Positions 7,631 through 64,000 of a stretch of DNA of 64,000 nucleotides are shown piece after piece. The translations under genes were made by a program, and so were the position numbers. This stretch comes from Akkermansiaceae bacterium (lineage in GTDB: Bacteria; Verrucomicrobiota; Verrucomicrobiia; Verrucomicrobiales; Akkermansiaceae). Positions within the stretch are counted from its first letter, which is position 1, and each line of letters opens with the position of its first letter. Under the pieces are notes generated by a model. It made no database searches. It saw only the letters and a list, made by a program, of their open reading frames with translations, and was not told where the DNA came from. Location of the stretch: the NCBI GenBank assembly GCA_043716765.1, contig JAYSYA010000274.1:3082-67081 (forward strand). Direction: 5' to 3'.

Positions 7631-8407
7631 ATGCGATTTGCAGTGCTGGGCAGCGGGAGCGGAGGAAATGCGGCGGTCGTCGAGTGCGGCGGGCTGCGGC
7701 TGATGATCGATGCGGGATTGAGCGCGAAGCAGCTGTCGCTGCGACTCCAACAGGTAGGGATCGACCCCGCGTCGCTGGACGGGATTTTACTGACCCACGA
7801 GCACGGCGACCACGTCCGCGGGCTGAAGGTTTTTCTCAAACAGAACCCGGTGCCAGTGTTCACCACGCCGGCCACGGCGAGAGTGGTTCGGGAGGGCGGG
7901 ATCGAAGGCGGGACGTGGAAATTTTTCGAAGCGGGCCAAGTGTTCGCCATCGGCGGCATCGCGGTGGAGACCTTCGCGATTCAGCATGACGCGGTGGATC
8001 CGGTGGGTTTTGTGATCGGGCATGACACGCGGCGGCTGGGATTTCTATCCGACGCGGGATTCGTCACCCGCAGCATGACCGAACGCCTGCGCGGGCTGGA
8101 CGGGCTTTTCGTGGAGGCCAACTACGACGAAGGCCTGCTAGAAGCAGATATCAAGCGCCCGTGGTCGATCAAACAGCGGATCAGTTCGCGGCACGGCCAT
8201 TTGTCGAACGGCCAAGTCACCGAGTTGATCCGCGACATCGCCCACCCGGCGCTCGGGCGGGTGGTGCTCGGCCATTTGAGCTCGGACTGCAACACGCCGG
8301 ACACCATTCTATCAATGCTCCGGAGTTGTTTGGCGGATCTCGGTCACGGCCACATCGGCTTGCACTGCGCAGGCCAGCATGAGCCGACGGATTGGTTCGG
8401 ATTTTAA
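7631..8407 (+). CDS. MBL-fold metallo-hydrolase, YycJ/WalJ-like
   Basis: LGSGSGGNA, THEHGDH, HDAVDP, EANYD, GHLSN, LGHLS motifs. Confidence 0.88.
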   Translation: MRFAVLGSGSGGNAAVVECGGLRLMIDAGLSAKQLSLRLQQVGIDPASLDGILLTHEHGDHVRGLKVFLKQNPVPVFTTPATARVVREGGIEGGTWKFFEAGQVFAIGGIAVETFAIQHDAVDPVGFVIGHDTRRLGFLSDAGFVTRSMTERLRGLDGLFVEANYDEGLLEADIKRPWSIKQRISSRHGHLSNGQVTELIRDIAHPALGRVVLGHLSSDCNTPDTILSMLRSCLADLGHGHIGLHCAGQHEPTDWFGF

Positions 8408-9390
8408 AAGGGGCACTGGCGATCGCCACCGACTTGAACCGTGAGCGACCTCACCGCGAGGGCGGCGTTAGAAGACGCGTTGATCCGGTTTTGATCGAAC
8501 ATGGTTCCCGGCGGCAGTTTGCCAGAACAGAAAGCGGAACCTAACGGCACGCCTCCCTCGTGCAAAGTCACCTCGCCGGATTTGCGGTCGTAACGGAGCG
8601 TCACCGTCCGCGGACCCACCACGAGATTGCCAGGGAGGATGATCGGAACTCTCTGCTTCACATCCAGCGACCACGTGCGCTCGGGACCATAGGAGTCACC
8701 GAAGAAAATCACCTCGGTGCCTTTGTTGAAGAAGCTCACCCCGGCCCAGCCGTCGGTGTGGAACTCACCGTTCGAAGGTCGCCCGGCTTCAAGAGTCACC
8801 AGCACAACCGGCCGCAATCCATCAGGCAGGGTTGTGGGAAGGGCGAGAAAAACCGAGTAATTCATCCCGTCGATGCGATCACCCGAGATCGAGGGATTTC
8901 CATAATCCGCCCGCCATTCCGCTTTGATGAACGGCCCCGCGACAATCGGTTCGAAATGACCCAAGCCCTTGGAGAAACGACTCCCGTCGGCGGTGAAGGG
9001 CTCGATGCCGTCGGCACCCGAAACACGTCCCGCCTCGCCTGCGGATAGCCAAACCGCATCCGCAGAGCAACTAACCGCCGCAATTAATGGCGCGGGCTTC
9101 GCTCCGCGCCGGTAGAACAAGACGGCCAGCAAAGCCACCGCGGCAGCGGCGGCGGCGGCGAACCAAACGACTGCCGCAGGCAAGTTCCGCCTTGAGACGG
9201 GCACCGGTTTGCCGGTGATTAGACGGCCTTCGAATTCCTCGCACAGCGAGTGGTGCAGCAGCGCGTATTCGCCATAGGATTTCTCCAGTTCCGGCTCTAG
9301 CCGAAGCCGCTGTTGGAAGCCCGCAAAGGCTTCCTGTGAGATCGATCCGTCCAAAACCCGTTAGATGTGTTGGTGGTCGCTGCGTTTCAT
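8404..9390 (-). pseudogene. FecR-type anti-sigma factor pseudogene (in-frame TAA at codon 10, FecR core apparently deleted)
   Basis: ATG 9390 reads MKRSDHQHI*RVLDGSISQEAF, in frame with ORF 9354-8404. Cytoplasmic N-terminus and TM helix, then SADAVW joined directly to LSAGEAGRVS. The ATG overlaps the TGA of an upstream sigma fragment. Confidence 0.7.
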
Positions 9391-9452
9391 CCGGCGTTGT
9401 TGGAAATCGCTTGAAGCTGGCGCTCGATGCAGCGCTTCAGCGCTGCTCGTAG
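9387..9452 (-). pseudogene. 3' end of an ECF sigma factor gene
   Basis: Reads LRAALKRCIERQLQAISNNAG*, a typical ECF region-4 terminus, with ATGA coupling to the anti-sigma gene. The rest of the gene is replaced by helicase sequence. Confidence 0.6.
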
Positions 9453-12400
9453 GTTAAGGTAACTCGATCTCCGACTTCCACAAACAGGTCTGCGCTTCCG
9501 TCGGAGGCGACCGTCACTTCGTCGGCTAGCTCCAAGCTAGATTTTTCCTCCGCTTCGTTTTCAACCATCTCTTCGAAGATATCTTCCGTCTCCCACTGTG
9601 TGGTATCCTCAACCGCGCTCTGAAGACGGCGTTCTTCCAGAAAGTTTCTCAGACGTTCGGTTTCCTGGCGTGGGTTGTAGAACCAGTCTGTAGACCATAT
9701 TCGGTGGATGCGCCCCTTCCACCCAAGCGATTCGAGAATCTCTTGCCGGATGCGGTCGCGGTCCCGCACCGATGATCCACTGTGATACGTCGCCCCGTCG
9801 CACTCGATGCCGACCAGAAACTCACCGGGGCGGTCGGGATTGCGAACGGCCATGTCGATGAAAAATCCGGCCACGCCTAACTGGGGCTTAACTTCGTAGC
9901 CCAAGGCTGTCACCACGTTGGCCACCGAAATCTCGAAGTCGCTGTCGGGCTCCCGCTCGCCCTCGTCGGTAGTCACAAGCACTCCTCGTTTTGCGAAATC
10001 GAGGTAGTCGCGCAAAGCCTTGGTGCCGAGCGGAGTATGCATGTCGGTGACGATGTCCTCCGGCGCCATGGAAGTGAAAAGTTCGATCCGTCTTCTGGAA
10101 CGCGTGAAAAGCACGTTGAGGCGACGCCACCCATCGGGCCTGCTGATGGGACCGAAGTTTTGACGAAGTTTGTCCGTCCCTGGAGCTTTCCCGAATGTGG
10201 TTGAGATGAAGATAACGTCCCGCTCGTCACCCTGCACGTTTTCGAGGTTCTTGACGAAGAATGGCCAGCCTTCAGCTTCCCACCTGCCTATGAAATCGGC
10301 ACCCTCGTCGAAGGTTTTAAGTTTTTTGTCGAGCAGTTCCTCGATCAGTTCCCTTTGGGTTTGGTTAAGTGTTACAACGCCGAGCGATTCGTCGGGATGT
10401 TTGATCATGTGCTCGAGAACAGCGTCCACCAGACGTTGTGCCTCCGGAATGTTCTGCCGGTCTTTATATGAGCCACCTTTTACGTAGCGATACTTTACCC
10501 CGAGGCCTGGGCTCTTGGCATAGGGTGATGGGAAGACAATCAAGTTCTTGTAGAAGTGGTGATTCGAGAATGCGATGAGCGATTCGTGGTGCGACCGGTA
10601 ATGCCAGCGTAGGCTGCGCACCGGCGTGAAAAGCTGCTGGCAAATATCGAGGATACTTTCCATGCCGCTGATGGCGGCCGGAGCCTCGTCTTCGTCCTCG
10701 TCGTCTCCCGCATCTAGCATGCGGTCAAAGAAGTTGGTCGGAGGCAACTGCTTTGGATCTCCAACCACAACTAGCTGATACCCGCGGGCGATAGCACCCA
10801 AGGCATCTTCGGGGCGCAATTGGGACGCCTCGTCCATGACGACAAGATCGAACTTCAGAGCTCCCTGCTCAAGGTATTGGGCTACGGAGTGCGGTCCCAT
10901 CATGAAACAGGGTTTGAGTTCAAGGAGGGCATTGCCAGCCCGTTTCAGGAGTTGGCGGATTGGAATGTGACTGCGCTTTTTGCTGATTTCACGCCGCAGC
11001 AGGTGCATGTCGGTGAAGTCGCCCACGGTCGTACCTCGCTGCCCTTCTGGCACACAGGAACACAGTTCAATCTGGCTGGCGAAGTCTTTCCCGGTCAGTG
11101 AGATGATCTCTGCATCGAGGGCACTGAAATCTGATCGTGTCTTGTCGTGGGCTGCTCCATTGAACCGGGACAGCTCGGGGAATTCTTGATAAATTGATCT
11201 CCCGATGGATTGATAGACCGCAAACTCGAATGCATAGGCAAGGACCGACGAAGGCATTCTGCCGGATTCGAGGGCATCCGTGAAACTACCCAATCTTCTT
11301 TGGCGGGCTTGCTTTCGCAGCAAGAGATACTTCGACCAAGGAAGTATGGATCTCGGTGCGGCTGCCACAGTTTCCAGCCTGCCTGCTATTTCAGAGGGCG
11401 AATCGACCTTCAAGCCGGCCCGTACCTGTTTCTGCCATTCGCCCCACGAGAATGAACCGCGGGTTGCCAGACTCTCCAAGATCTCCCGCGCCTGGCGGCA
11501 CCCTTCGTCAATCTCACCGAAGAGTCTCTTGGCGAAATACAGCGCATCCGTTGCGTCTTCGGACAAAAGGCGTCTGCATACGGATGTCGGGAGTTCGAGT
11601 GCGCAAACGGCTTCGCCCCACTCGTGAGTCTGGGAAAGACGATCCAAATCCGTGGTGGCTCCATCGAACACCAGTCCGAGCAGGCGGCGCACATCTTCCG
11701 ATCCAGAGAAGCGGTCGAGAATGGATTTGGCCTCTGCTTCCTCAGCCGCAGCAGTAAAGACGTCTTTTGCGGAGGTTCCGTTTCGAGCGAAGGGGGAGAT
11801 TCGCTCGAGCACGCCCCTTGCAGCCAAAGCATCCTCGCGAGCGTGGACGACCATAGCGGGCCAGCCATCGAACTGGTTCCACTTTGGAATGGGCGCGAGC
11901 TTTGACCACGCAGCGTCGAATTCCGATTTTGCCGTGGCAAACTCTTGGGCGATGGACAAAGGAACTTGCTCTCCGGCGAACGTGAGCGCCTGTAAAGCCG
12001 TTTCAGCGGCGAGAGACGCATGAGCGGTTACTACGGGCAAAATCTCGGTCCAAGGGTCTCTTGCCAGACTTGCAAGATGGTCAAACTCCTCGCCTCCAGC
12101 TTCTTTGAGTTCTTTCTGCCCCCGCATCAGCAAGGCAAAGTCGGGCGCGGCCTCATCGAGTTCGGCCCTGGCTTCCATGAGGCTCAGCGCAATTATCGGA
12201 GAAAGTGCAATATCGGCTCGGACACCGAAGAACCCTGTTACTAGTCCGAGTCTTTCAACCGCCTCGGCCAGGAATTTTAACGCCATGTCCCACCCGTCCA
12301 CCCTGGCCTCGCGGAGTCCGGCAACCTCGGAGCCAAGGATGTTTCTAACGGACGCCTCAGCTTCTGCCAACCTTTCGGCAGCGGCTTTTACGGAATCTGC

Positions 12401-51285: not shown

Positions 51286-51608
51286 GGGCCGTCACTACAC
51301 TGGGCTGGCGTTGAGCGCAAGATGCATCCCCGAGCCACGTATGAGAAACCTCATTCGCCACGGGAAAAACTGAGTTTCCACCCACAACTCAAAGCCGACG
51401 TGACCACCCCGCGCCACGCCCAACGAATCGGGCTGAAATTGCAAGCACCCGTCCACAAAGCCACCGTCACCATGACCTTCACACCGCTGCCTGCCAAGCA
51501 AACGGTGAAGTGGAAAAACCTCCGATTCGGGACCAAAACGAATCGATTGCCAGCGCGGCGGATCTCGGTATGCTCCGCGCTCCGGCGAAAAATACCGGCT
51601 TTTATCCC

Positions 51609-52607
51609 ATGAATCATCCCCATGTAGCGATCGTAGGTGCGACGGGTGCCGTCGGCGTAGAAATGCTCCTTTGCCTCGAACAGCGAAATTTCCCGCTTAG
51701 CAAATTGACCTTGCTCGCATCGGTGAGATCCGTCGGCAAAAAGATGATCTTCCGCGGCGAGGAAATTACCGTGCAGGAACTCACCCACGATTCGTTCGTC
51801 GGCATCGACATCGCGCTCTTCAGCGCGGGCGGCGGGATTTCCCAGGAGTTCGCCCCGTCCGCCGCAGCCGCCGGCGCGGTCGTGATCGACAACTCCTCCG
51901 CCTTCCGGATGGAAGCGGACGTGCCGCTCGTCGTGCCGGAAATCAATCCGGAGGCCGCGAAAAACCACCCGCGCAACATCATCGCCAATCCGAACTGCAC
52001 GACGATCATTTCGCTGATGGCACTCGCGCCCCTGCACCAGGCGTTCGGCCTGCGCTCGGTCATCGCCTCGACCTATCAGGCTGTCTCGGGCTCGGGCGCG
52101 CAAGGCATCGTCGAGCTGGAAGAGCAGATGAAAGCGATCACCGCCGGTGAGCCGGTAACCTTGAAGGTCTACCCGCGCCAGATCGCCTTCAACGTGATCC
52201 CGCAGGTGGACGCCTTCACCGAAAACGGCTACACCAAGGAAGAGCTCAAAATGCTCCACGAAGGCCGGAAAATCATGAATCTTCCCGAGCTGCGAGTGTC
52301 CTGCACCTGCGTGCGGGTGCCGGTCTATCGGTCGCACTCGGTTTCCATCACCGCGCAGTTCGAGCGCCCGGTCGATGTCGCCGCAGCCCGCGCCGCCTAC
52401 GCGGGCAAGCCCGGCGTGCAAGTCATCGATGACCCGGCGAACAAAGTCTTCCCGGTGCCGCTCGACACCACCGGCAAGGACGACTGCCTCGTCGGCCGCA
52501 TCCGCAAGAACCTGGTATTCGACAACGCGCTCGACCTCTGGGTGGTGGGCGACCAGGTCCGCAAGGGTGCCGCGCTCAACGCCGTGCAGATCGCGGAGAT
52601 CTTTTGA
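51609..52607 (+). CDS. asd: Aspartate-semialdehyde dehydrogenase
   Basis: GATGAVG, DNSSAFR, ANPNCTT, STYQAVSGSG, CVRVPV..SHS, KGAALNAVQIAE. ATG at 51609. Confidence 0.96.
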   Translation: MNHPHVAIVGATGAVGVEMLLCLEQRNFPLSKLTLLASVRSVGKKMIFRGEEITVQELTHDSFVGIDIALFSAGGGISQEFAPSAAAAGAVVIDNSSAFRMEADVPLVVPEINPEAAKNHPRNIIANPNCTTIISLMALAPLHQAFGLRSVIASTYQAVSGSGAQGIVELEEQMKAITAGEPVTLKVYPRQIAFNVIPQVDAFTENGYTKEELKMLHEGRKIMNLPELRVSCTCVRVPVYRSHSVSITAQFERPVDVAAARAAYAGKPGVQVIDDPANKVFPVPLDTTGKDDCLVGRIRKNLVFDNALDLWVVGDQVRKGAALNAVQIAEIF

Positions 52608-52615
52608 AGAGATGG

Positions 52616-52705
52616 AGAGTTGAAAGTTGAGGGTTGAGAGCAAGAAAATGAACGGCTCCTGATCTTCCTCTTCCCTATCAACCCTCAACCTCCAACTCTC
52701 AACTT
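52616..52705. repeat. Intergenic inverted array of heptamer-like units
   Basis: AGTTGAA/AGTTGAG/GGTTGAG units followed by complementary TCAACC/CTCAACC/CTCAACT units, able to form a long hairpin. Confidence 0.5.
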
Positions 52706-52711
52706 CTGCCG

Positions 52712-53593
52712 ATGGACTTGAAAACCTACCTCGCCACCCGCGCTGCGGAAGTGGATGCGGCGATGGATGCCTTTTTGCCGAAGGCAAAGGAGCGCCCGGC
52801 CACGATCCACGCCGCGATGCGTTACAGCGTTTTCGCTGGCGGCAAGCGCTTGCGGCCCGTGCTTTGCCTAGCAGCCGCGGAAGCCTGCGGCGGGGAAATT
52901 TCCAACGCCCTCGCCCCGGCCTGCGCGGTGGAGCTGATGCACACCTATTCGTTAGTCCATGATGATTTGCCAGCGATGGATGACGACGACCTGCGCCGCG
53001 GCCGCCCCACCTGCCACAAGGTTTATGGCGAAGGCATGGCCGTGCTTTGCGGCGACGCGCTGCTAACAGAATCATTCATCGTCCTCGCACAAGCACCGAC
53101 GACGAAGCGCTACGGCACCCGCCACTACATCGCCGAGCTGGCGGAAACCGGCGGCAGTAGAAAACTCATCGGCGGGCAAGTGATGGACTTGGAAGGCGAA
53201 GGCCAAAAACTCACCAAACGCGACCTCGTCCGCATCCACGAAGCGAAGACCGCCGCCCTCCTAACGACTTCCTTGCGGCTCGGCGCAATGACCGCCAACG
53301 CGACTCCGGCGAAGCTCAAAGCACTCACCCTTTTCGGTCACGCGCTCGGCCTCGCCTTCCAAGTCATCGACGACATCCTCGACGTGACCCAAAGCACCGA
53401 TACGTTAGGCAAAACTGCGGGCAAGGACCAAGCCGTGGACAAGTCCACCTACCCCGCCATCCTCGGACTCGACGCGTCCCGCAAAGAAGCCGCGCGGCTA
53501 ACGAAAACCGCGATGGATGCGCTCACGCCGTTCGGCCCCAAAGCCGCGCGCCTGGAGGAAATCGCCACCCACTTGCTGAAGCGGGAATATTGA
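52712..53593 (+). CDS. ispA: Polyprenyl diphosphate synthase (FPP/GGPP synthase)
   Basis: GGKRLRP, HDDLPAMDDDDLRRG, KT, FQVIDDILD, GKTAGKD. Confidence 0.92.
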   Translation: MDLKTYLATRAAEVDAAMDAFLPKAKERPATIHAAMRYSVFAGGKRLRPVLCLAAAEACGGEISNALAPACAVELMHTYSLVHDDLPAMDDDDLRRGRPTCHKVYGEGMAVLCGDALLTESFIVLAQAPTTKRYGTRHYIAELAETGGSRKLIGGQVMDLEGEGQKLTKRDLVRIHEAKTAALLTTSLRLGAMTANATPAKLKALTLFGHALGLAFQVIDDILDVTQSTDTLGKTAGKDQAVDKSTYPAILGLDASRKEAARLTKTAMDALTPFGPKAARLEEIATHLLKREY

Positions 53594-55926: not shown

Positions 55927-56430
55927 ATGGGCGACCTGCTGGACGGAGACCAACACGAAATGGACCCCTTGGAACTCCAAGTGGTGGCCATGTTCGTGGA
56001 TGGCGTCCGCGTTTTGGGCCTGCCCCGTTCGATCGGAGAAATTTACGGGCTGCTTTTCATTTCACAATCCGCCCTCTCCTTGGACGATCTGGTTTGCCGC
56101 CTCCGCATCAGCAAAGGCTCTGCCAGCCAAGGGCTGCGGATGCTCAAAAGCCTCGGTGCGGTCCGCGAAACGGACGGCGGAGCCGATCGCCGCACGTATT
56201 ACGAACCCGCGATCGAGCTCAAGCGCCTCGCCGGCGGCTTCATCCGCGAGCAAATCCGACCGCATCTGGAGAATGGAAAAACCAAGATCGACCGGCTGGC
56301 GGAAAGCGCGCGCGTAATCGACGACCCCGAGCGCAGGAAATTTTTTGGCGAGCGCGTCGAACGGCTGGAAACATGGATGCGCAGCGGCGGCAGAGTGCTT
56401 CCCGTACTTCAAAAACTTCTCGGCCAATGA
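55927..56430 (+). CDS. GbsR/MarR-like winged-helix regulator
   Basis: [40 protein letters not shown]. Overlaps the next gene (ATGA). Confidence 0.82.
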
Positions 56431-56978
56431 ACACCACTGACCCACAGCTTCCCGAATGGTTCTGCCTCCGCTGCCAAACGAAACGCGAGCACATCGCCGC
56501 CGGACATTTGCGCCAACTCGAAGGCGTTGAGGTTTTCTGCCCCCGCCTCCGCTACCGCAAAGCCACCCGCCGCGGCAAAATCTGGTGGGTCGAGCCGATG
56601 TTTCCCGGCTACCTGCTGGCGAAATTCAACGTGGGCGAAATGGAGCGCGCCGTCACTTTCTGCCAAGGCGTCCGCGGTCTGGTGCGCTTCGGCTCGGAAA
56701 TCCCGCCCGTCCCCGAGTCATTCGTGGAGGCGATCAAACACGAAATCCTCAACCGCAAGGGAGCCGAGCATGATGAGCTCGTCACGCTCAGCCCGGTCAT
56801 TCAAATCGGCGATGAAGTGGAAGTCGCCTTCGGCCCGCTCCAAGGGATGCAGGGAACCGTCGTCGCGGTTCCATCCGCCACCGAGCGGGTAAAAATTCTC
56901 ATCGAATTTCTCGGAAACCCACAGGCGGTCGATATGGACCTCTTCTCCCTTCTTCTTCCGAGACGTCCAGCTCCCTGA
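56427..56978 (+). CDS. RfaH-like NusG paralog (transcription antiterminator)
   Basis: WFCLRC, EPMFPGYL, GVRGLVRFG NGN domain; GDEVEVAFGPLQGMQG KOW domain. Confidence 0.88.
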   Translation: MNTTDPQLPEWFCLRCQTKREHIAAGHLRQLEGVEVFCPRLRYRKATRRGKIWWVEPMFPGYLLAKFNVGEMERAVTFCQGVRGLVRFGSEIPPVPESFVEAIKHEILNRKGAEHDELVTLSPVIQIGDEVEVAFGPLQGMQGTVVAVPSATERVKILIEFLGNPQAVDMDLFSLLLPRRPAP

Positions 56979-57176: not shown

Positions 57177-58349
57177 TTGGAAGCTGACAAATCCACCGAC
57201 TTCCTAATCATCGGTGCCGGCTTTTCCGGACTTGTGATCGCTGAGCGCCTGTCCGCGGCCGGCTGGAAATGCGTCATCGTGGACCGCCGCGAGCACCTCG
57301 GCGGCAACGCCCGTGACGGCATCAACGCCGCCGGCGTCCTCACCCATCATTACGGCCCGCACTACTTCCGCTCCAACTCACCGCGAATCGTCGATTATCT
57401 ATCCAGTTTCACCGCGTGGCACAAGGTCAGCTACACCATCAAAAGCCACGCCCGCGGCCGCTACTGGAGTTTCCCGATCAATCTCAACACCTTCGAGGAA
57501 TACCTCGGCCAGCCTTCAACCACGGAAGAATTCACCGCCTGGCTGGAGCAAAAAAGAATCCACGTCACAGACCCGCAAAACTCCGAGGAAGTCATCATTT
57601 CCCAAGTCGGCCGCGAACTCTACGAACTGTTTTTCGAAGGCTACACGCTCAAACAATGGAAGCGCCACCCGCGCGAACTCGACGCCTCGGTCTGCGGCCG
57701 CATCCCCGTCCGCACGAACCGCGACGACCGCTATCTATCCGAATCCTTCCAGGCTCTGCCCAAACACGGCTACACCGCGCTTTTTGAAACGATGCTCAAC
57801 GCCTCTCCCGGCGTCGAACTCCACCTCGGCGTGGATTACGAAGAAGCCCGCGCTCGCTGGAACTACAAGCACCTCGTCTTCACCGGTGCCATCGATGAAT
57901 TCTACGGCCGCCGCTTCGGCGCACTGCCCTACCGCTCACTCCGCTTCGAGCACGAATCGTTCTCCGCCGAACAACTGCGCGCCCGCGAGCCCGTTTCAGG
58001 CAAACCCGGCTTCTGGCAGCCTGCAATGCAGGTCAACTATCCGGAACCCGACGTGCCATTCACTCGCATCGTCGAGATCAAGCACGCCACTGGCCAACAG
58101 ATCGACGCCACCACCACCGTCCGCGAGTTTCCCAAAGACTGGACACCTGACGACGAGCCGTTCTATCCGGTCCCCGCGCCGGAGGCCCGCGCCGCGTTCC
58201 TCCGCTACTCCGAGCTCGCCACCGCCGAGCCGCACACCAGCTTCATCGGCCGCCTCGCCACCTACCGTTATTATAACATGGACCAGGTCACCGCCATGGC
58301 CATCGCCGAGGCGGACAAACTCATTTCCACATACGGATCCAATCTATGA
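57177..58349 (+). CDS. glf: UDP-galactopyranose mutase
   Basis: [44 protein letters not shown] start. Confidence 0.93.
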
Positions 58350-59284
58350 CCAAACTATTCATCGCGGGACACCGCGGCATGGTCGGTTCGGCGCTCGTGA
58401 GCCAAGCCGAAAAACTCGGCGGCTATCAGCTCCTCTCCGCCACCCGCGACCAGCTCGATCTCTGCGACCAACACGCCGTCTTTGATTTCCTCGCCGCAGA
58501 AAAACCGGACGTCGTCATCATCGCCGCCGCCAAAGTCGGTGGCATTCACGCGAATTCCACCTACCCGGCGGACTTCATTTACGAAAATCTCAACATCGCC
58601 TCAAACCTCGTCGAAGGCAGCCGCCGCGCCGGAGTGCCGCGCGCGTTGTTCCTTGGTTCGTCCTGCATCTATCCAAAAATGGCACCTCAACCGATGCCGG
58701 AAGACTGCCTGCTCACCGGGCCGCTGGAAATCACTAACGAAGCTTACGCCATCGCCAAAATCGCCGGACTCAAGCTTTGCCAGCACTACCGCGCCCAGCA
58801 CGGACTGCTGTATCACAGCGCCATGCCCACCAACCTCTACGGCCCCGGCGACAACTACCACCCGGAGAACTCCCACGTCATCCCCGCCCTGATCCGCCGC
58901 TTCCACGAAGCCAAGGAACGAGGCGACGCCGCCGTCACGATCTGGGGCACCGGCACCCCGCGCCGCGAGTTCCTCCACGTCCACGACCTCGCCGCCGCCT
59001 GCTTCCACCTCTTGGCGTTAGAATCGCCGCCGGACTGGGTGAACGTCGGCGTCGGTGATGACGTCACGATTCTCGAACTCGCCACGCTTGTCGCCAAAAC
59101 CACCGGCTTCACCGGCGAGATCCTAACCGACGCCACCAAGCCCGACGGCACCCCGCGCAAGCTGCTGGATATTTCAAAGATCAAGGACACTGGCTGGCAG
59201 CCCCAAGTCCCCTTCGCAGATGGGCTCGCCGCGGCCTATCAGGATTTCCTCTCCACCCTTGCAACCGGTGAGGCTCGTCTCTAA
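58346..59284 (+). CDS. fcl: GDP-L-fucose synthase
   Basis: [53 protein letters not shown]. Confidence 0.95.
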
Positions 59285-59302: not shown

Positions 59303-60418
59303 ATGAAAAAAGCACTCATCACCGGCATCACCGGGCAAGACGGTTCCTACCTCGCTGAATTCCTGCTCGAAAAAGGCTATGAAGTCCACGGCATCAAGCG
59401 CCGCGCCTCGCTCTTCAACACTCAGCGGATCGACCACATTTATGAGGACCCACACGTCGAGAATTCCCGCTTCCGCTTGCACTACGGCGACCTCGCTGAC
59501 AGCTCGAACCTCACCCGCATCATCAGCGAGGTCCAACCGGACGAAGTTTACAACCTCGGCGCGCAATCCCACGTGGCCGTCTCTTTCGAAGCTCCCGAAT
59601 ACACTGCGGACGTCGATGCCATCGGCACGCTGCGGCTGTTGGAAGCGATCCGTTTCCTCGGACTCGAAAGGAAAACCCGGTTCTATCAGGCGTCCACCTC
59701 CGAGCTCTACGGCTTGGTCCAGGAAATTCCGCAGAAGGAAACCACTCCTTTCCACCCGCGTTCTCCATACGCCGTCGCCAAGATGTATGCCTACTGGATC
59801 ACGGTGAATTACCGCGAAGCCTACGGCATGTATGCGTGCAACGGCATCCTCTTCAACCACGAATCCCCGCGCCGCGGCGAGACCTTCGTCACCCGCAAGA
59901 TCACCCGCGCCATTGCTAACATCGCCCAAGGCCTCGAAGCCTGCCTGTTCCTCGGCAACATCGATTCCCTCCGCGACTGGGGCCACGCCAAGGACTACGT
60001 CCGCATGCAATGGATGATGCTCCAACAGGAAACCGCCGACGATTTCGTCATCGCCACCGGCAAACAGATTTCCGTCCGCGAGTTCGTCCGCATGGCCGCT
60101 CGCGAGGCCGGCATCCACCTGGCATTCTCCGGCGAGGGCGAAAAGGAAATCGCCACCGTCACCGCCGTCGATCCCCACCTCGCCCCGGCGGTGTCCGTGG
60201 GGGCCGTCGTCGTCAAGGTCGATCCCCGCTACTACCGCCCCGCCGAAGTGGAAACCCTGCTAGGCGACCCGACCAAGGCGAAGGATAAACTTGGCTGGGT
60301 TCCGGAAATCACCGTCGAGCAAATGTGCGCCGAGATGGTCGCCCACGACCTCGACATCGCCCGCCGCCACTCGCTGCTTAAATCCCACGGCCATCACGTT
60401 TCCGTCTCCAAAGAGTAG
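59303..60418 (+). CDS. gmd: GDP-mannose 4,6-dehydratase
   Basis: [40 protein letters not shown]. Confidence 0.97.
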
Positions 60419-60477
60419 CCGAAAAGCGAAAGGCAAGATTGCATCCGGTCGAACACTTGCACTCAACTCCATCCATC

Positions 60478-61560
60478 ATGCAAAAAGTCTTTGTCTCAGG
60501 CTGTTATGACATCCTCCACGCCGGCCACCTCCAGTTCTTCGAGGAGGCCCGCGCGCTGGGAGACTATCTGATCGTGTCATTCGCTTCCGCCGAGGTGCTT
60601 TGGCATCACAAGCGGCGCAAGCCATCCATTCCGGACGACCACAAGCGCGCTTTGCTCCAAGGCTTGCGGATGATCGACGAAGTCATCGTCACCCAAGGCC
60701 ACAAAGAGGGACTCGACTTTGAGCAAGACTTCCTCCGCATCCGCCCCGACTTTCTCATCGTCACCGAGGACGACAAATACGGCGACGTGAAGCGCGAACT
60801 CTGCGCCGCGGTCGGCGCGGAATACACTGTTCTCGCCAAAACCCCGCCGCGCTTCGAACCGGTCTCTACCAGCTCGATCGTCCGCTGGGTCCAAGCACCT
60901 ACCGAAGCGCCCTTGCGGATCGATTTCGCCGGGGGCTGGCTCGACGTCCCGCGCTTCTCCCGCCCCGGTGAGTTCGTGGTAAATTGCGCGATTTCCCCGC
61001 TCGTCTCCCTCCGCGAGTGGCCCTACGAAAAGCAAGCCGGCCTCGGCGGCAGTGGCGCGTGGGCCCTGCTCAATGGCCGCGACGGCGTGGACTCGGAAAT
61101 CGACCTCGGCGTCGGTTGGCAAGACCCCGCCGTGATTCGCGAGACAGGGCTTTGCGTCTGGCGCTCCGGGAAAAAACCGGCGCTCGATTTCAAACAGAAC
61201 GGCGATTTTCTAACCGGCCGCATGGCGGTTTACTGGACTGGCAGCCCGCACGACACACCCGGCGTCGCCAATCATCCGCGCGACTATGATGGCATCGCCC
61301 GCAGCGCCCGGGTCGCCCGCGAAGGCGCGCTCCAAGCCGATATCCGCTGCCTGGCTGACGGCGTCCATCTCTATCACATGACCCAGCTCGCGGAAGGCAT
61401 GGACCCCCTGCCGGAAATCCCCGGTGCCATCGCCCGCAAATACTGCGGCGGCGGTCACGGCGGCTACGCGCTCTATCTGTTTGACGAGCCCGCCCTCCGC
61501 GACACCGCCATCGCCACCACTCCGGAGCTTCGCGCTGTCGAACCGTTCTGCCGCGTCTGA
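60478..61560 (+). CDS. Fusion of a HIGH-type nucleotidyltransferase and a GHMP-like sugar kinase
   Basis: GCYDILHAGH (HxGH) N-domain; PLRIDFAGGWLD, GLGGSGA, GWQD, KYCGGGHGG in the C-domain. Confidence 0.75.
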   Translation: MQKVFVSGCYDILHAGHLQFFEEARALGDYLIVSFASAEVLWHHKRRKPSIPDDHKRALLQGLRMIDEVIVTQGHKEGLDFEQDFLRIRPDFLIVTEDDKYGDVKRELCAAVGAEYTVLAKTPPRFEPVSTSSIVRWVQAPTEAPLRIDFAGGWLDVPRFSRPGEFVVNCAISPLVSLREWPYEKQAGLGGSGAWALLNGRDGVDSEIDLGVGWQDPAVIRETGLCVWRSGKKPALDFKQNGDFLTGRMAVYWTGSPHDTPGVANHPRDYDGIARSARVAREGALQADIRCLADGVHLYHMTQLAEGMDPLPEIPGAIARKYCGGGHGGYALYLFDEPALRDTAIATTPELRAVEPFCRV

Positions 61561-61582: not shown

Positions 61583-62347
61583 TTGAAGACCGTCTGCATC
61601 ATCGGCCTGCCCGTCGCGGCGACCACTTACGCCGGAGCCGTGGAATGGATCCTGGAGCACGCCCGGAGAAACGACCGCGCCTACGCCGTGGAGGCCGCCA
61701 ACACCCACGTCGCCGCCTTGGCCCGCAGCGATGAGGACTTCGGCGAGTCCATGCGGCGCTTCGACTTGATCTGCCCCGACGGCATGCCGCTCGTCTGGGC
61801 GCTCAACTCCCGGCTCGCCGCGGACGAAAAACTTCGCGCCCGGGTTTACGGGCCGACCCTGATGTTGGAAACGCTCAAGGCGACTAACGGACTCTCGGAA
61901 TTCAAACATTTCCTGCTTGGCGGCATGCAAAGCACGCTGGACGAGTTGACGCGCAACTTCGCCACCCGCTTCCCTAACGTCGCCATCGCCGCCTCCCACT
62001 CGCCACCGTTCGGAGAGTGGCCGGAAAGCGAATTCGAGCTCATCGCGGAGAAAATCCGGAGCTCGGGAGCCAACCTCGTGTGGGTCGGCCTCGGCTGCCC
62101 GAAGCAGGAGCATTGGATCGCCCACAACAGGCACCGCCTGCCGCCGGGCGTCTATTTCGGCATCGGCGCGGCCTTCGCCTTCCACGCGGGCGAAGTCAGA
62201 CAATCGCCGCCCGTCCTCCAGCGCCTCGGCTTGGAATGGGCCTATCGCGTGGCGATGGAGCCCCGCCGACTCTTCAAACGTTACTTTGTTTACAACTCCC
62301 TTTTTATCTACCACCTCCTGCGCGAGCGCATTTTCCCGAACCACTGA
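61583..62347 (+). CDS. WecB/TagA/CpsF family glycosyltransferase
   Basis: [36 protein letters not shown]...EPRRLFKRY. Confidence 0.93.
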
Positions 62348-62364: not shown

Positions 62365-63753
62365 ATGCCTATCAAATCCATCTGCTGCCTCGGTGCCGGT
62401 TACGTCGGCGGCCCCACCATGGCCATGATCGCCGCCAAGTGCCCTCACATCAAGGTGACCGTCGCGGACATGAATGAACAGCGCATCGCCGCTTGGAACT
62501 CGGACACCCTGCCCGTTTACGAGCCCGGTCTCGACGCCATCGTCGCCTCCGCCCTCCACCGGAACCTCCATTTCACCACCGACATCCGCTCCGCCATCGC
62601 CGGCGCGGATCTGATCTTCGTTTCGGTCGGCACGCCCACCAAGTCCTACGGCATCGGTGCCGGTCGCGCTGCGGACCTCCGGTATATCGAGTCCGCCGCC
62701 CGCCTGATCGCGGAAGTTTCAGAGGGCCATAAAATCATTGTCGAAAAAAGCACGATCCCGGTCAAAACCGCCACCGCGATCAAGTCGATCCTCGCCGCGA
62801 ACTCTCCTAACGGCGCAACCTTCCAAGTCCTATCCAACCCCGAGTTCCTCGCAGAAGGCACCGCCATCGAAGACCTCCAATGCCCGGACCGGATTCTAAT
62901 TGGTGGTGAAATCACCCCTGAAGGCAACGCCGCCGTCGAAGCCCTTGTGTCGATCTATGCCCATTGGATCCCCCGCGAGCGCATCCTCACCACCAACCTC
63001 TGGTCGGCGGAACTTTCCAAGCTCGTCGCCAACGCTTTCCTCGCCCAACGGATTTCCTCCATCAACTCCATCTCCGCTCTCTGCGAGGCCACCGGTGCCG
63101 ATGTCAACGAGGTCGCCCGCGCCATCGGCATGGACTCACGGATCGGCCCAAAATTCCTCAAAGCCTCCGTCGGCTTCGGCGGGTCCTGCTTCCAAAAAGA
63201 CCTCCTCAACCTCGTCTATCTCTGCGAGTCCTTCAACCTCCCGGAGGTCGCGGAATACTGGCGTCAAGTCGTGCAGCTCAACAACTGGCAGAAGTCGCGC
63301 TTCGTCGAGAAAATCGTCCGCACCCTGTATAACACCGTCAACGGCAAGCGGATCGCCATCCTCGGCTTCGCTTTCAAAAAGGACACCAACGACACCCGCG
63401 AATCCCCCGCCATCCAGGTCTGCCGCGACCTTCTCCACGAACGCGCCCACCTCGCCATTTACGACCCGCGAGTCAGCGCGGAAAATATCCATCAGGATCT
63501 AATCGCCGCCGGTGTGCCAGCGGAGCTCATCGCCACCAACGTGGAGATTTGCAGCGACCCCTACACTGCGGCCGCCGGGGCGCACGCCCTCGCCACCCTC
63601 ACCGAATGGGACGAATTCCGCACCCTCGACCTGCCGCGCGTTTATGACCTCATGCTCAAGCCCGCCTTCGTTTTCGACGGCCGCGCCGTCCTTTCCCTGG
63701 AAGCGCTCGTCGCCCACGGCTTCGAGGCCTTTGTCATCGGCAAAGGGCTGTGA
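62365..63753 (+). CDS. ugd: UDP-glucose 6-dehydrogenase
   Basis: [55 protein letters not shown] at 62365. Confidence 0.95.
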
Positions 63754-63863: not shown

Positions 63864-64000
63864 ATGAACATCCACCCCGAGTTCCACCGCTTTTTGCAGC
63901 GCCACGACAAGGAAAGCCTTCTCGGCCAACGCGGCCTCGTCGTCTGGCTTTGCGGGTTGTCCGGCTCGGGGAAATCCACCATCGCCAACGCCGCCGAGCG
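63864..64000 (+). CDS. cysC: Adenylyl-sulfate kinase, partial (runs off the window)
   Basis: MNIHPEFHRFLQRHDKESLLGQRGLVVWLCGLSGSGKSTIANAAER; typical CysC P-loop context. Confidence 0.82.
   Translation, partial: MNIHPEFHRFLQRHDKESLLGQRGLVVWLCGLSGSGKSTIANAAE

Follow-up and report, generated by a model that had tools for sequence, protein, structure and literature searches.

Two routes of fucose activation are recognised, the de novo gmd-fcl pathway and salvage of the Fkp or FUK-GFPP type. The window analysed here, the whole 64,000-nucleotide stretch of contig JAYSYA010000274.1 from an Akkermansiaceae bacterium (assembly GCA_043716765.1), carries beside its gmd and fcl genes a gene (60478..61560, forward strand) that fuses an HxGH nucleotidyltransferase domain to a compact, fucokinase-like GHMP domain. 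The question raised by this locus is which activated sugar, if any, such a fusion supplies. We consider it likely that the protein is a bifunctional enzyme for the salvage and activation of L-fucose; from its predicted folds, retained residues, orthology and association with gmd and GT11 fucosyltransferase genes, we infer the kinase and transferase activities as well as the sugar and the nucleotide. The gene and its parts, with checked motif coordinates, are as follows.

60478..61560, forward strand: fusion gene, HxGH nucleotidyltransferase plus compact fucokinase-like GHMP domain (open reading frame (ORF), homologues, AlphaFold2 predicted local distance difference test (pLDDT) 95.8)
60478..60894, forward strand: N-terminal nucleotidyltransferase domain, residues 1-139 (PF01467, E 8e-12; TagD, Z 18.3)
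60517-60528, forward strand: HAGH, the HxGH motif
60610-60621, forward strand: KRRK
60850-60876, forward strand: RFEPVSTSS
60895..61557, forward strand: C-terminal compact GHMP kinase domain, residues 140-360 (profile matches to Fkp, HddA, WcbL and mevalonate kinase (MVK); structural Z 19-22)
60916-60945, forward strand: motif I, RIDFAGGWLD
61039-61059, forward strand: motif II, GLGGSGA
61096-61098, forward strand: E207, aligned with Fkp E751
61114-61125, forward strand: GWQD
61438-61464, forward strand: motif III, KYCGGGHGG

The gene is real and conserved. It encodes 360 residues and a stop codon from an ATG within an enclosing ORF that opens at the TTG at 60439 and ends at 61560. More than 2,700 homologous protein clusters were found, mostly of 360 residues and mostly from Verrucomicrobiota labelled Akkermansiaceae, Luteolibacter or Verrucomicrobiaceae, and the best matches were 83-96% identical. 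Because almost all homologues agree in length and first residues, the ATG at 60478 is the correct start, and the coordinates in an earlier reading made from the letters alone (here the sequence-only reading) proved exact. The AlphaFold2 model of the protein had a pLDDT of 95.8 and a predicted template modelling score (pTM) of 0.85.

A profile of 19 family members, compared with the Protein Data Bank (PDB), matched the Fkp fucokinase first (E 2e-5), followed by the heptokinases HddA and WcbL and by MVK. Residues 142-359 of the AlphaFold2 model superposed on GHMP kinases with Z scores of 19-22 and root-mean-square deviations (rmsd) of 2.2-3.0 Å over 204-217 residues, which span the full length of the 300-390-residue targets (MVK, galactokinase (GalK), WcbL and the C-terminal domain of Fkp). 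Since the aligned residues cover the whole targets, the C-terminal domain is modelled as a complete but pared-down GHMP core, approximately 40% shorter than usual, rather than as a fragment. No match to GHMP_kinases_N or GHMP_kinases_C was found in the window protein at the Pfam gathering score, and the Pfam GHMP models matched only one or two of the 19 family members (E approximately 0.1); the predicted membership of the GHMP superfamily rests on the fold and the motifs, not on these models. Structure prediction, which the sequence-only reading had proposed for the shortened kinase, recovered the GHMP fold.

In the crystallographic work on Fkp, Arg592 and Asp762 form the catalytic pair and Glu751 is essential; Trp599 stacks on C4-C5-C6 of fucose, Asp601, Thr602, Gly759 and Gln761 bond to its hydroxyls, and the Gly-rich loop 712-720 binds phosphate (PMC11982464). 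Our profile alignment placed motif I on Fkp residues 589-619, GWQD on 755-763 and motif III on 890-912, with GLGGSGA as the counterpart of the Gly-rich loop. Seven of the eight fucose-contact and catalytic residues are identical in the window protein (R592 to R147, W599 to W154, D601 to D156, E751 to E207, G759 to G213, Q761 to Q215 and D762 to D216), the single change being T602 to V157. In the family alignment, conservation in the fucose-pocket and catalytic columns is complete or at least 90% among fused and stand-alone members. The motifs RIDFAGGW, GWQD and K.CGGG.GG, which had been quoted as nearer to fucokinase than to galactokinase, are all present, and the Fkp-like residues and the top profile match to Fkp bear out that judgement. 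A degenerate kinase active site, named in the sequence-only reading as grounds for refutation, was not found; the catalytic residues are kept.

The N-terminal domain matches CTP_transf_like (PF01467, E 8e-12) over residues 6-135. Among the NCBIfam models, rfaE_dom_II scored best (57 bits), with HldE and TagD (43.5 bits) also matching, all below cut-off; the generic cyt_tran_rel domain was the sole model past its cut-off. A PDB sequence search gave human phosphoethanolamine cytidylyltransferase (ECT) and TagD as the nearest solved proteins. Residues 1-138 of the AlphaFold2 model superposed on TagD with a Z score of 18.3 and an rmsd of 2.0 Å over 126 of 126 TagD residues, and Fom1 CyTase and HldC (Z 16.5) came close after it. 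The domain looks intact in the model. No reliable determinant of nucleotide specificity was found in its sequence. The Pfam match, the profile match and the AlphaFold2 superposition together confirm that an HxGH nucleotidyltransferase and a compact GHMP domain occupy one chain.

Compared with known enzymes, the protein resembles Fkp of Bacteroides fragilis (PDB 9IIP, 9IIT and 5YYS) in joining a kinase and a nucleotidyltransferase and in having a GHMP-type kinase with common fucose-contact and catalytic residues (Z 19.8 over 211 residues). However, Fkp has 949 residues and an N-terminal alpha/beta plus beta-helix pyrophosphorylase (PF07959) that is absent from the window protein, which scores 16 bits against the 721-bit PRK13412 cut-off; it would work like Fkp without being a member of that family. 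HldE/RfaE likewise fuses a sugar kinase to an HxGH nucleotidyltransferase of the same fold, but the HldE kinase is N-terminal and of the PfkB type, a domain that the window protein lacks, and the HldE pathway needs a phosphatase between its two steps; with 57 bits against 181.5 (TIGR02199) and 49 against 521 (PRK11316), the window protein is not a member. The architecture is thus distinct from both Fkp and HldE, with neither PF07959 nor a PfkB domain, as the sequence-only reading had held. TagD, ECT and CCT, which match residues 1-139 best in both structure and sequence, have in common with them the HxGH motif, a basic KxxK-type stretch, an R(M/Y)(I/V)DEV-like motif and R...STS, but are single-function CTP:phospho-alcohol cytidylyltransferases, whereas the window protein has an added kinase domain and, at 43.5 bits against the 165.4-bit TIGR01518 cut-off, is not a TagD. 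HddA and WcbL belong to the same GHMP subgroup and have the sugar anomeric kinase fold (WcbL, Z 21.4 over 217 aligned residues), but they are full-size proteins of approximately 340 residues that are not fused to a nucleotidyltransferase; in our alignment, HddA of B. thetaiotaomicron has GGGSD, without the motif I Trp, where the window protein and Fkp have GGW.D.

In the mechanism that we propose, free L-fucose, and probably the similar sugars D-arabinose and L-galactose, would be phosphorylated at the anomeric hydroxyl by the mini-GHMP domain. In this step the L-galacto-configured ring would be held by W154, D156 and Q215, D216 would serve as general base, and the transferred phosphate would be stabilised by R147 together with the GLGGSGA loop. 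From fucose-1-phosphate and a nucleoside triphosphate, the HxGH domain would go on to form nucleoside diphosphate (NDP)-L-fucose and pyrophosphate. The fucosyltransferases supplied by the adjacent de novo gmd-fcl route would use this NDP-L-fucose as well, and in some genomes the fusion enzyme would be the only recognisable supply of a fucose donor.

GT11 is a GDP-fucose-dependent family. We asked where its genes occur relative to gmd and the fusion gene, using three queries in 151 genomes of the same family, 149 of which are at least 90% complete and at most 5% contaminated. The fusion gene was found in 81 genomes, gmd in 103 and GT11 in 48, distributed as follows.

Fusion gene and gmd: 57 genomes, 31 with a GT11 fucosyltransferase
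Fusion gene only: 24 genomes, 7 with GT11
gmd only: 46 genomes, 10 with GT11
Neither fusion gene nor gmd: 24 genomes, 0 with GT11

All 48 GT11 genomes have gmd or the fusion gene, and seven of them have the fusion gene alone. Fisher's test of the genomes with neither gene against the rest gave p of approximately 6e-5, a value that overstates the association, since related genomes are non-independent. Five genomes with the fusion gene and GT11 but no gmd are 96-99% complete; in these, the best gmd score was 73 bits, under the cut-off of 415, and a search for an Fkp-type pyrophosphorylase found none. Smaller genome checks agree with the 151-genome pattern. Strict complementarity between gmd and the fusion gene was considered and not seen; because 57 of the 151 genomes carry both, the profile argument rests on GT11 and not on mutual exclusion. 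By hand count, the two genes lie within approximately 3 kb of each other in about 29 of those 57 genomes, in several genera but not in the Akkermansia-like one. The GT11 pattern therefore favours an activated-fucose product, and this genome context indicates that the product is probably GDP-fucose. Of the two sugars that the sequence-only reading had offered for salvage, fucose is thus supported by the pocket residues, the gmd adjacency and the GT11 pattern, and heptose gains no support.

In at least 11 genomes of three genera, a GT11 gene lies on the same contig as the fusion gene, 32-47 kb away (G120:C1, G193:C4, G085:C15, G158:C3, G176:C32, G187:C4, G094:C1, G103:C69, G121:C39, G136:C18 and G124:C2), which suggests one large conserved envelope-glycan region.

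Genetic evidence comes from Akkermansia muciniphila, in which all 12 D-arabinose-resistant suppressors from two strains hit Amuc_1591 (V176G, G326E or a frameshift), and L-fucose or mucin relieved D-arabinose toxicity and rescued growth (PMC13313206). Amuc_1591, which is in one transcription unit with murJ, was modelled as a cytidylyl/adenylyl-transferase domain plus a fucokinase-like 'sugar-binding' domain and named a fucose-nucleotidyltransferase (PMC13313206, Gut Microbes, June 2026). The window protein resembles it in two-domain architecture and length, and V176 and G326 are kept at the same numbers; by sequence comparison, the window gene is an orthologue within the Amuc_1591-type family of nucleotidyltransferase-mini-GHMP fusions. 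The two differ in setting, since the window gene lies in a gmd-fcl precursor operon and Amuc_1591 beside murJ. An ungapped alignment over 359 residues gives 67% identity to the A. glycaniphila homologue, which lies directly upstream of murJ, and a 2.65-Mb single-contig genome of the same, Akkermansia-like genus has a copy that is 66% identical and also beside MurJ; from the architecture, the murJ neighbour and the residue numbering, we infer that these murJ-linked Akkermansia loci correspond to Amuc_1591. The fusion is carried by about half of the sampled genomes in the window's genus and by 19 of 19 in the Akkermansia-like genus. Several complete genomes of the latter (g15; e.g., G092, G110, G119, G143, G168 and G186) have two fusion copies at distant positions. 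A literature search for a cytidylyltransferase-GHMP fusion returned nothing relevant. The architecture is nevertheless already published for Amuc_1591, and the window gene adds one orthologue to that family; the prior characterisation that the sequence-only reading had allowed for exists as suppressor genetics and modelling (PMC13313206), not as biochemistry.

Several points weigh against L-fucose activation by this protein. Relative to the Fkp kinase, approximately 140 residues are missing, about 100 of them between the motif I strand and GWQD. The proposed adenine contacts of Fkp are Asp644, Met645, Pro666 and Ile669 (PMC11982464). In the sequence-profile alignment these fall inside the missing stretch, so that canonical ATP base binding is not assured, and the kinase appears to have lost the usual adenine pocket. 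The N-terminal domain comes nearest to enzymes that use CTP or ATP, whereas GDP-fucose is the donor of known fucosyltransferases. To our knowledge, the HxGH (TagD/HldC) fold is known only with CTP and ATP, and a GTP-using member would be unprecedented; a GDP-fucose product therefore implies the use of GTP by such a fold. The 151 genomes are related, so the counts overstate independence, and each absence rests on a single query. No GH29 fucosidase was found in the bacterium's own genome, which is 91.5% complete. Finally, the evidence on Amuc_1591 consists of genetics and modelling, without a purified or assayed protein (PMC13313206). If a fucosyl donor is made, we slightly favour the view that it is either GDP-L-fucose, formed by the first GTP-using HxGH enzyme, or CDP- or ADP-L-fucose, accepted by the fucosyltransferases of the gmd-less genomes; each would be without precedent. 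The kinase may in addition be the smallest working GHMP kinase, with non-canonical nucleotide binding.

An unlikely alternative keeps the two-step chemistry and changes the sugar: D-arabinopyranose, L-galactose or another 6-deoxy-L-hexose of L-galacto configuration would be converted into a non-GDP (CDP- or ADP-) sugar for a dedicated transferase. The replacement of Fkp T602 by V157 and the likeness of the N-terminal domain to CTP- and ATP-dependent enzymes are consistent with this, as are the phage copies of the fusion, which lie beside their own GT-A glycosyltransferase and a second small nucleotidyltransferase with no gmd or fcl detected in the scanned flanks. D-arabinose is clearly an in vivo substrate in Akkermansia, but L-fucose competes with it (PMC13313206). 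Moreover, W154, whose Fkp counterpart stacks on C4-C5-C6 of fucose, is kept, the adjacency to gmd is conserved across genera, and GT11 occurs only in genomes with gmd or the fusion gene, all of which argue for fucose.

The main rival, which we regard as a little less probable still, is that the protein is a nucleotidyltransferase only and that its C-terminal domain is a non-catalytic binder presenting fucose or fucose-1-phosphate to the HxGH domain. The apparent deletion of the adenine-contact segment points in this direction; the P-loop and motif III backbone of Fkp also bind the phosphate of fucose-1-phosphate (PMC11982464), and the Akkermansia paper words the domain as a 'sugar-binding domain' (PMC13313206). 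However, D216, R147, E207 and the Gly-rich loop Ser show little or no variation, even in stand-alone copies that have no nucleotidyltransferase domain, and the bacterium's own genome shows no other fucokinase-like gene that could make fucose-1-phosphate. Free D-arabinose and L-fucose, in addition, act through Amuc_1591 in vivo (PMC13313206).

Heptose activation in the manner of HddA or HldE is very improbable, as is synthesis of a CDP-alcohol of the glycerol or ethanolamine type, from which the neighbouring WecG/TagA-family transferase would help to build a teichoic-acid-like polymer; both were rejected. In their favour, rfaE_dom_II and then TagD are the top NCBIfam matches to the N-terminal domain, the closest kinase structures include HddA and WcbL, and a WecG/TagA-family gene is the conserved downstream neighbour. 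Against them, the HldE and TagD models score far under their cut-offs, the motif I Trp and GWQD match Fkp where B. thetaiotaomicron HddA has GGGSD in place of GGW.D, the Akkermansia genetics indicate fucose and arabinose (PMC13313206), and no heptose pathway or TagB/TagF-type gene was seen among the annotated ORFs of the operon or window.

The fusion gene lies in a forward-strand operon, whose other genes in the window are as follows.

56094..56978, forward strand: RfaH/UpxY/LoaP-like NusG-family antiterminator at the operon head (Pfam NusG, residues 121-214; NCBIfam RfaH, LoaP and UpxY below cut-off)
57177..58349, forward strand: glf, UDP-galactopyranose mutase (PF03275, E 7e-65; TIGR00031, 287 bits)
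58346..59284, forward strand: fcl, GDP-L-fucose synthase (NF047922, 465 bits, E 1e-139, slightly short of the 500-bit cut-off)
59303..60418, forward strand: gmd, GDP-mannose 4,6-dehydratase (TIGR01472, 585 bits, above the 415-bit cut-off)
61583..62347, forward strand: WecG/TagA/CpsF (EpsA-like) glycosyltransferase (PF03808, E 1e-53; TIGR00696 above cut-off)
62365..63753, forward strand: UDP-glucose 6-dehydrogenase (ugd/TuaD-like), starting at the Met at 62365 (three UDPG_MGDP_dh domains; TIGR03026, 341 bits, above cut-off)

The fusion gene had been placed right after gmd-fcl; the adjacency holds, and the real order is fcl followed by gmd. The order glf-fcl-gmd-fusion-wecG-ugd recurs in relatives, in which the antiterminator is also syntenic, and one complete genome keeps antiterminator-fusion-wecG-ugd without glf, fcl and gmd. 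The antiterminator ORF comprises 294 residues with the NusG domain only at 121-214, and has either a 120-residue N-terminal extension or a later true start. Past ugd, the operon continues beyond the end of the window with cysC (adenosine 5'-phosphosulfate (APS) kinase), a CysD-like protein of the PAPS_reduct family and a CysN-like GTPase (window 63921-64000 and L021:3-2966). Co-transcription of sulfate activation with sugar-nucleotide supply hints at a sulfated fucose- or uronate-containing glycan. The operon is a precursor supply for UDP-galactofuranose, GDP-fucose, UDP-glucuronate and perhaps 3'-phosphoadenosine 5'-phosphosulfate (PAPS), not a full glycan assembly locus. Except for a divergent UXS/RmlB-like short-chain dehydrogenase/reductase (SDR) and a Wzy_C protein, the genes upstream have no connection with the operon; a 574-residue ORF without a Pfam match (51351-53075, reverse strand) lies between an SDR gene and a gene for a 3-keto-disaccharide hydrolase-like protein. 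Elsewhere in the bacterium's own genome, neither PF07959 nor a second Fkp-like kinase was found; it has three ordinary GHMP kinases and one GT11 gene on another contig (C12:43385-43747).

An exhaustive HMMER search with the C-terminal domain over 1.84 billion representatives returned only 260 proteins at E <= 0.001; the family is small and distinct. The domain occurs both fused, with the nucleotidyltransferase in front (approximately 360 residues), and alone (approximately 215-245 residues). Relatives turned up in 568 species genomes in a pattern scan; nearly all of the best 80 were Verrucomicrobiales. Three metagenome-assembled genomes (MAGs) titled 'Akkermansia muciniphila' (L069, L070 and L092) have copies 80-94% identical to the C-terminal domain of the window protein, against approximately 66% in genuine Akkermansia; these records look mislabelled and probably belong to Luteolibacter-like Akkermansiaceae.

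The family domain is also carried by 47 IMG/VR viral loci, whereas tblastn with the C-terminal domain gave no match in the GenBank phage collection. Phages have acquired the fusion module, which they carry next to a glycosyltransferase and within replication gene blocks. Viral contigs (L022 and L023-L067) have the same nucleotidyltransferase-mini-GHMP fusion, with C-terminal domains 43-59% identical. At 7522-9681 of L022 (IMGVR_UViG_3300027791_000013), the fusion runs into the start of a GT-A gene (8615-9271) that itself overlaps a second CTP_transf_like gene of 140 residues (9259-9681); DnaB flanks the block on one side, and RecA-like, QueC, amidotransferase and GNAT genes on the other. It seems possible that this block is a phage glycosylation cassette for DNA or a surface glycan. 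No gmd or fcl was detected near the phage copies in the flanks scanned. Stand-alone mini-kinase genes of approximately 215-270 residues occur in viral contigs L044, L060, L065 and L066 (around position 8000 or 5400), with no nucleotidyltransferase recognisable by Pfam beside them. The longest ORF that covers the domain in L054 has 378 residues from a putative start, and its N-terminal part has no Pfam match. A link to phage arabinosyl-DNA pathways was dropped; the paper on glycosylated 5-hydroxycytosine describes another fusion, of a MurU-like nucleotidyltransferase with a kinase.

The position of the window gene in a gmd-fcl operon provides independent genomic support for the assignment to fucose. 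If this assignment is true, a single 360-residue chain that converts fucose to NDP-fucose could serve chemoenzymatic fucosylation, and the fusion family would be a third, minimal route of fucose activation, one that is compact and widespread and that, in a fair number of Verrucomicrobia, Akkermansia-like genomes included, may be the only one.

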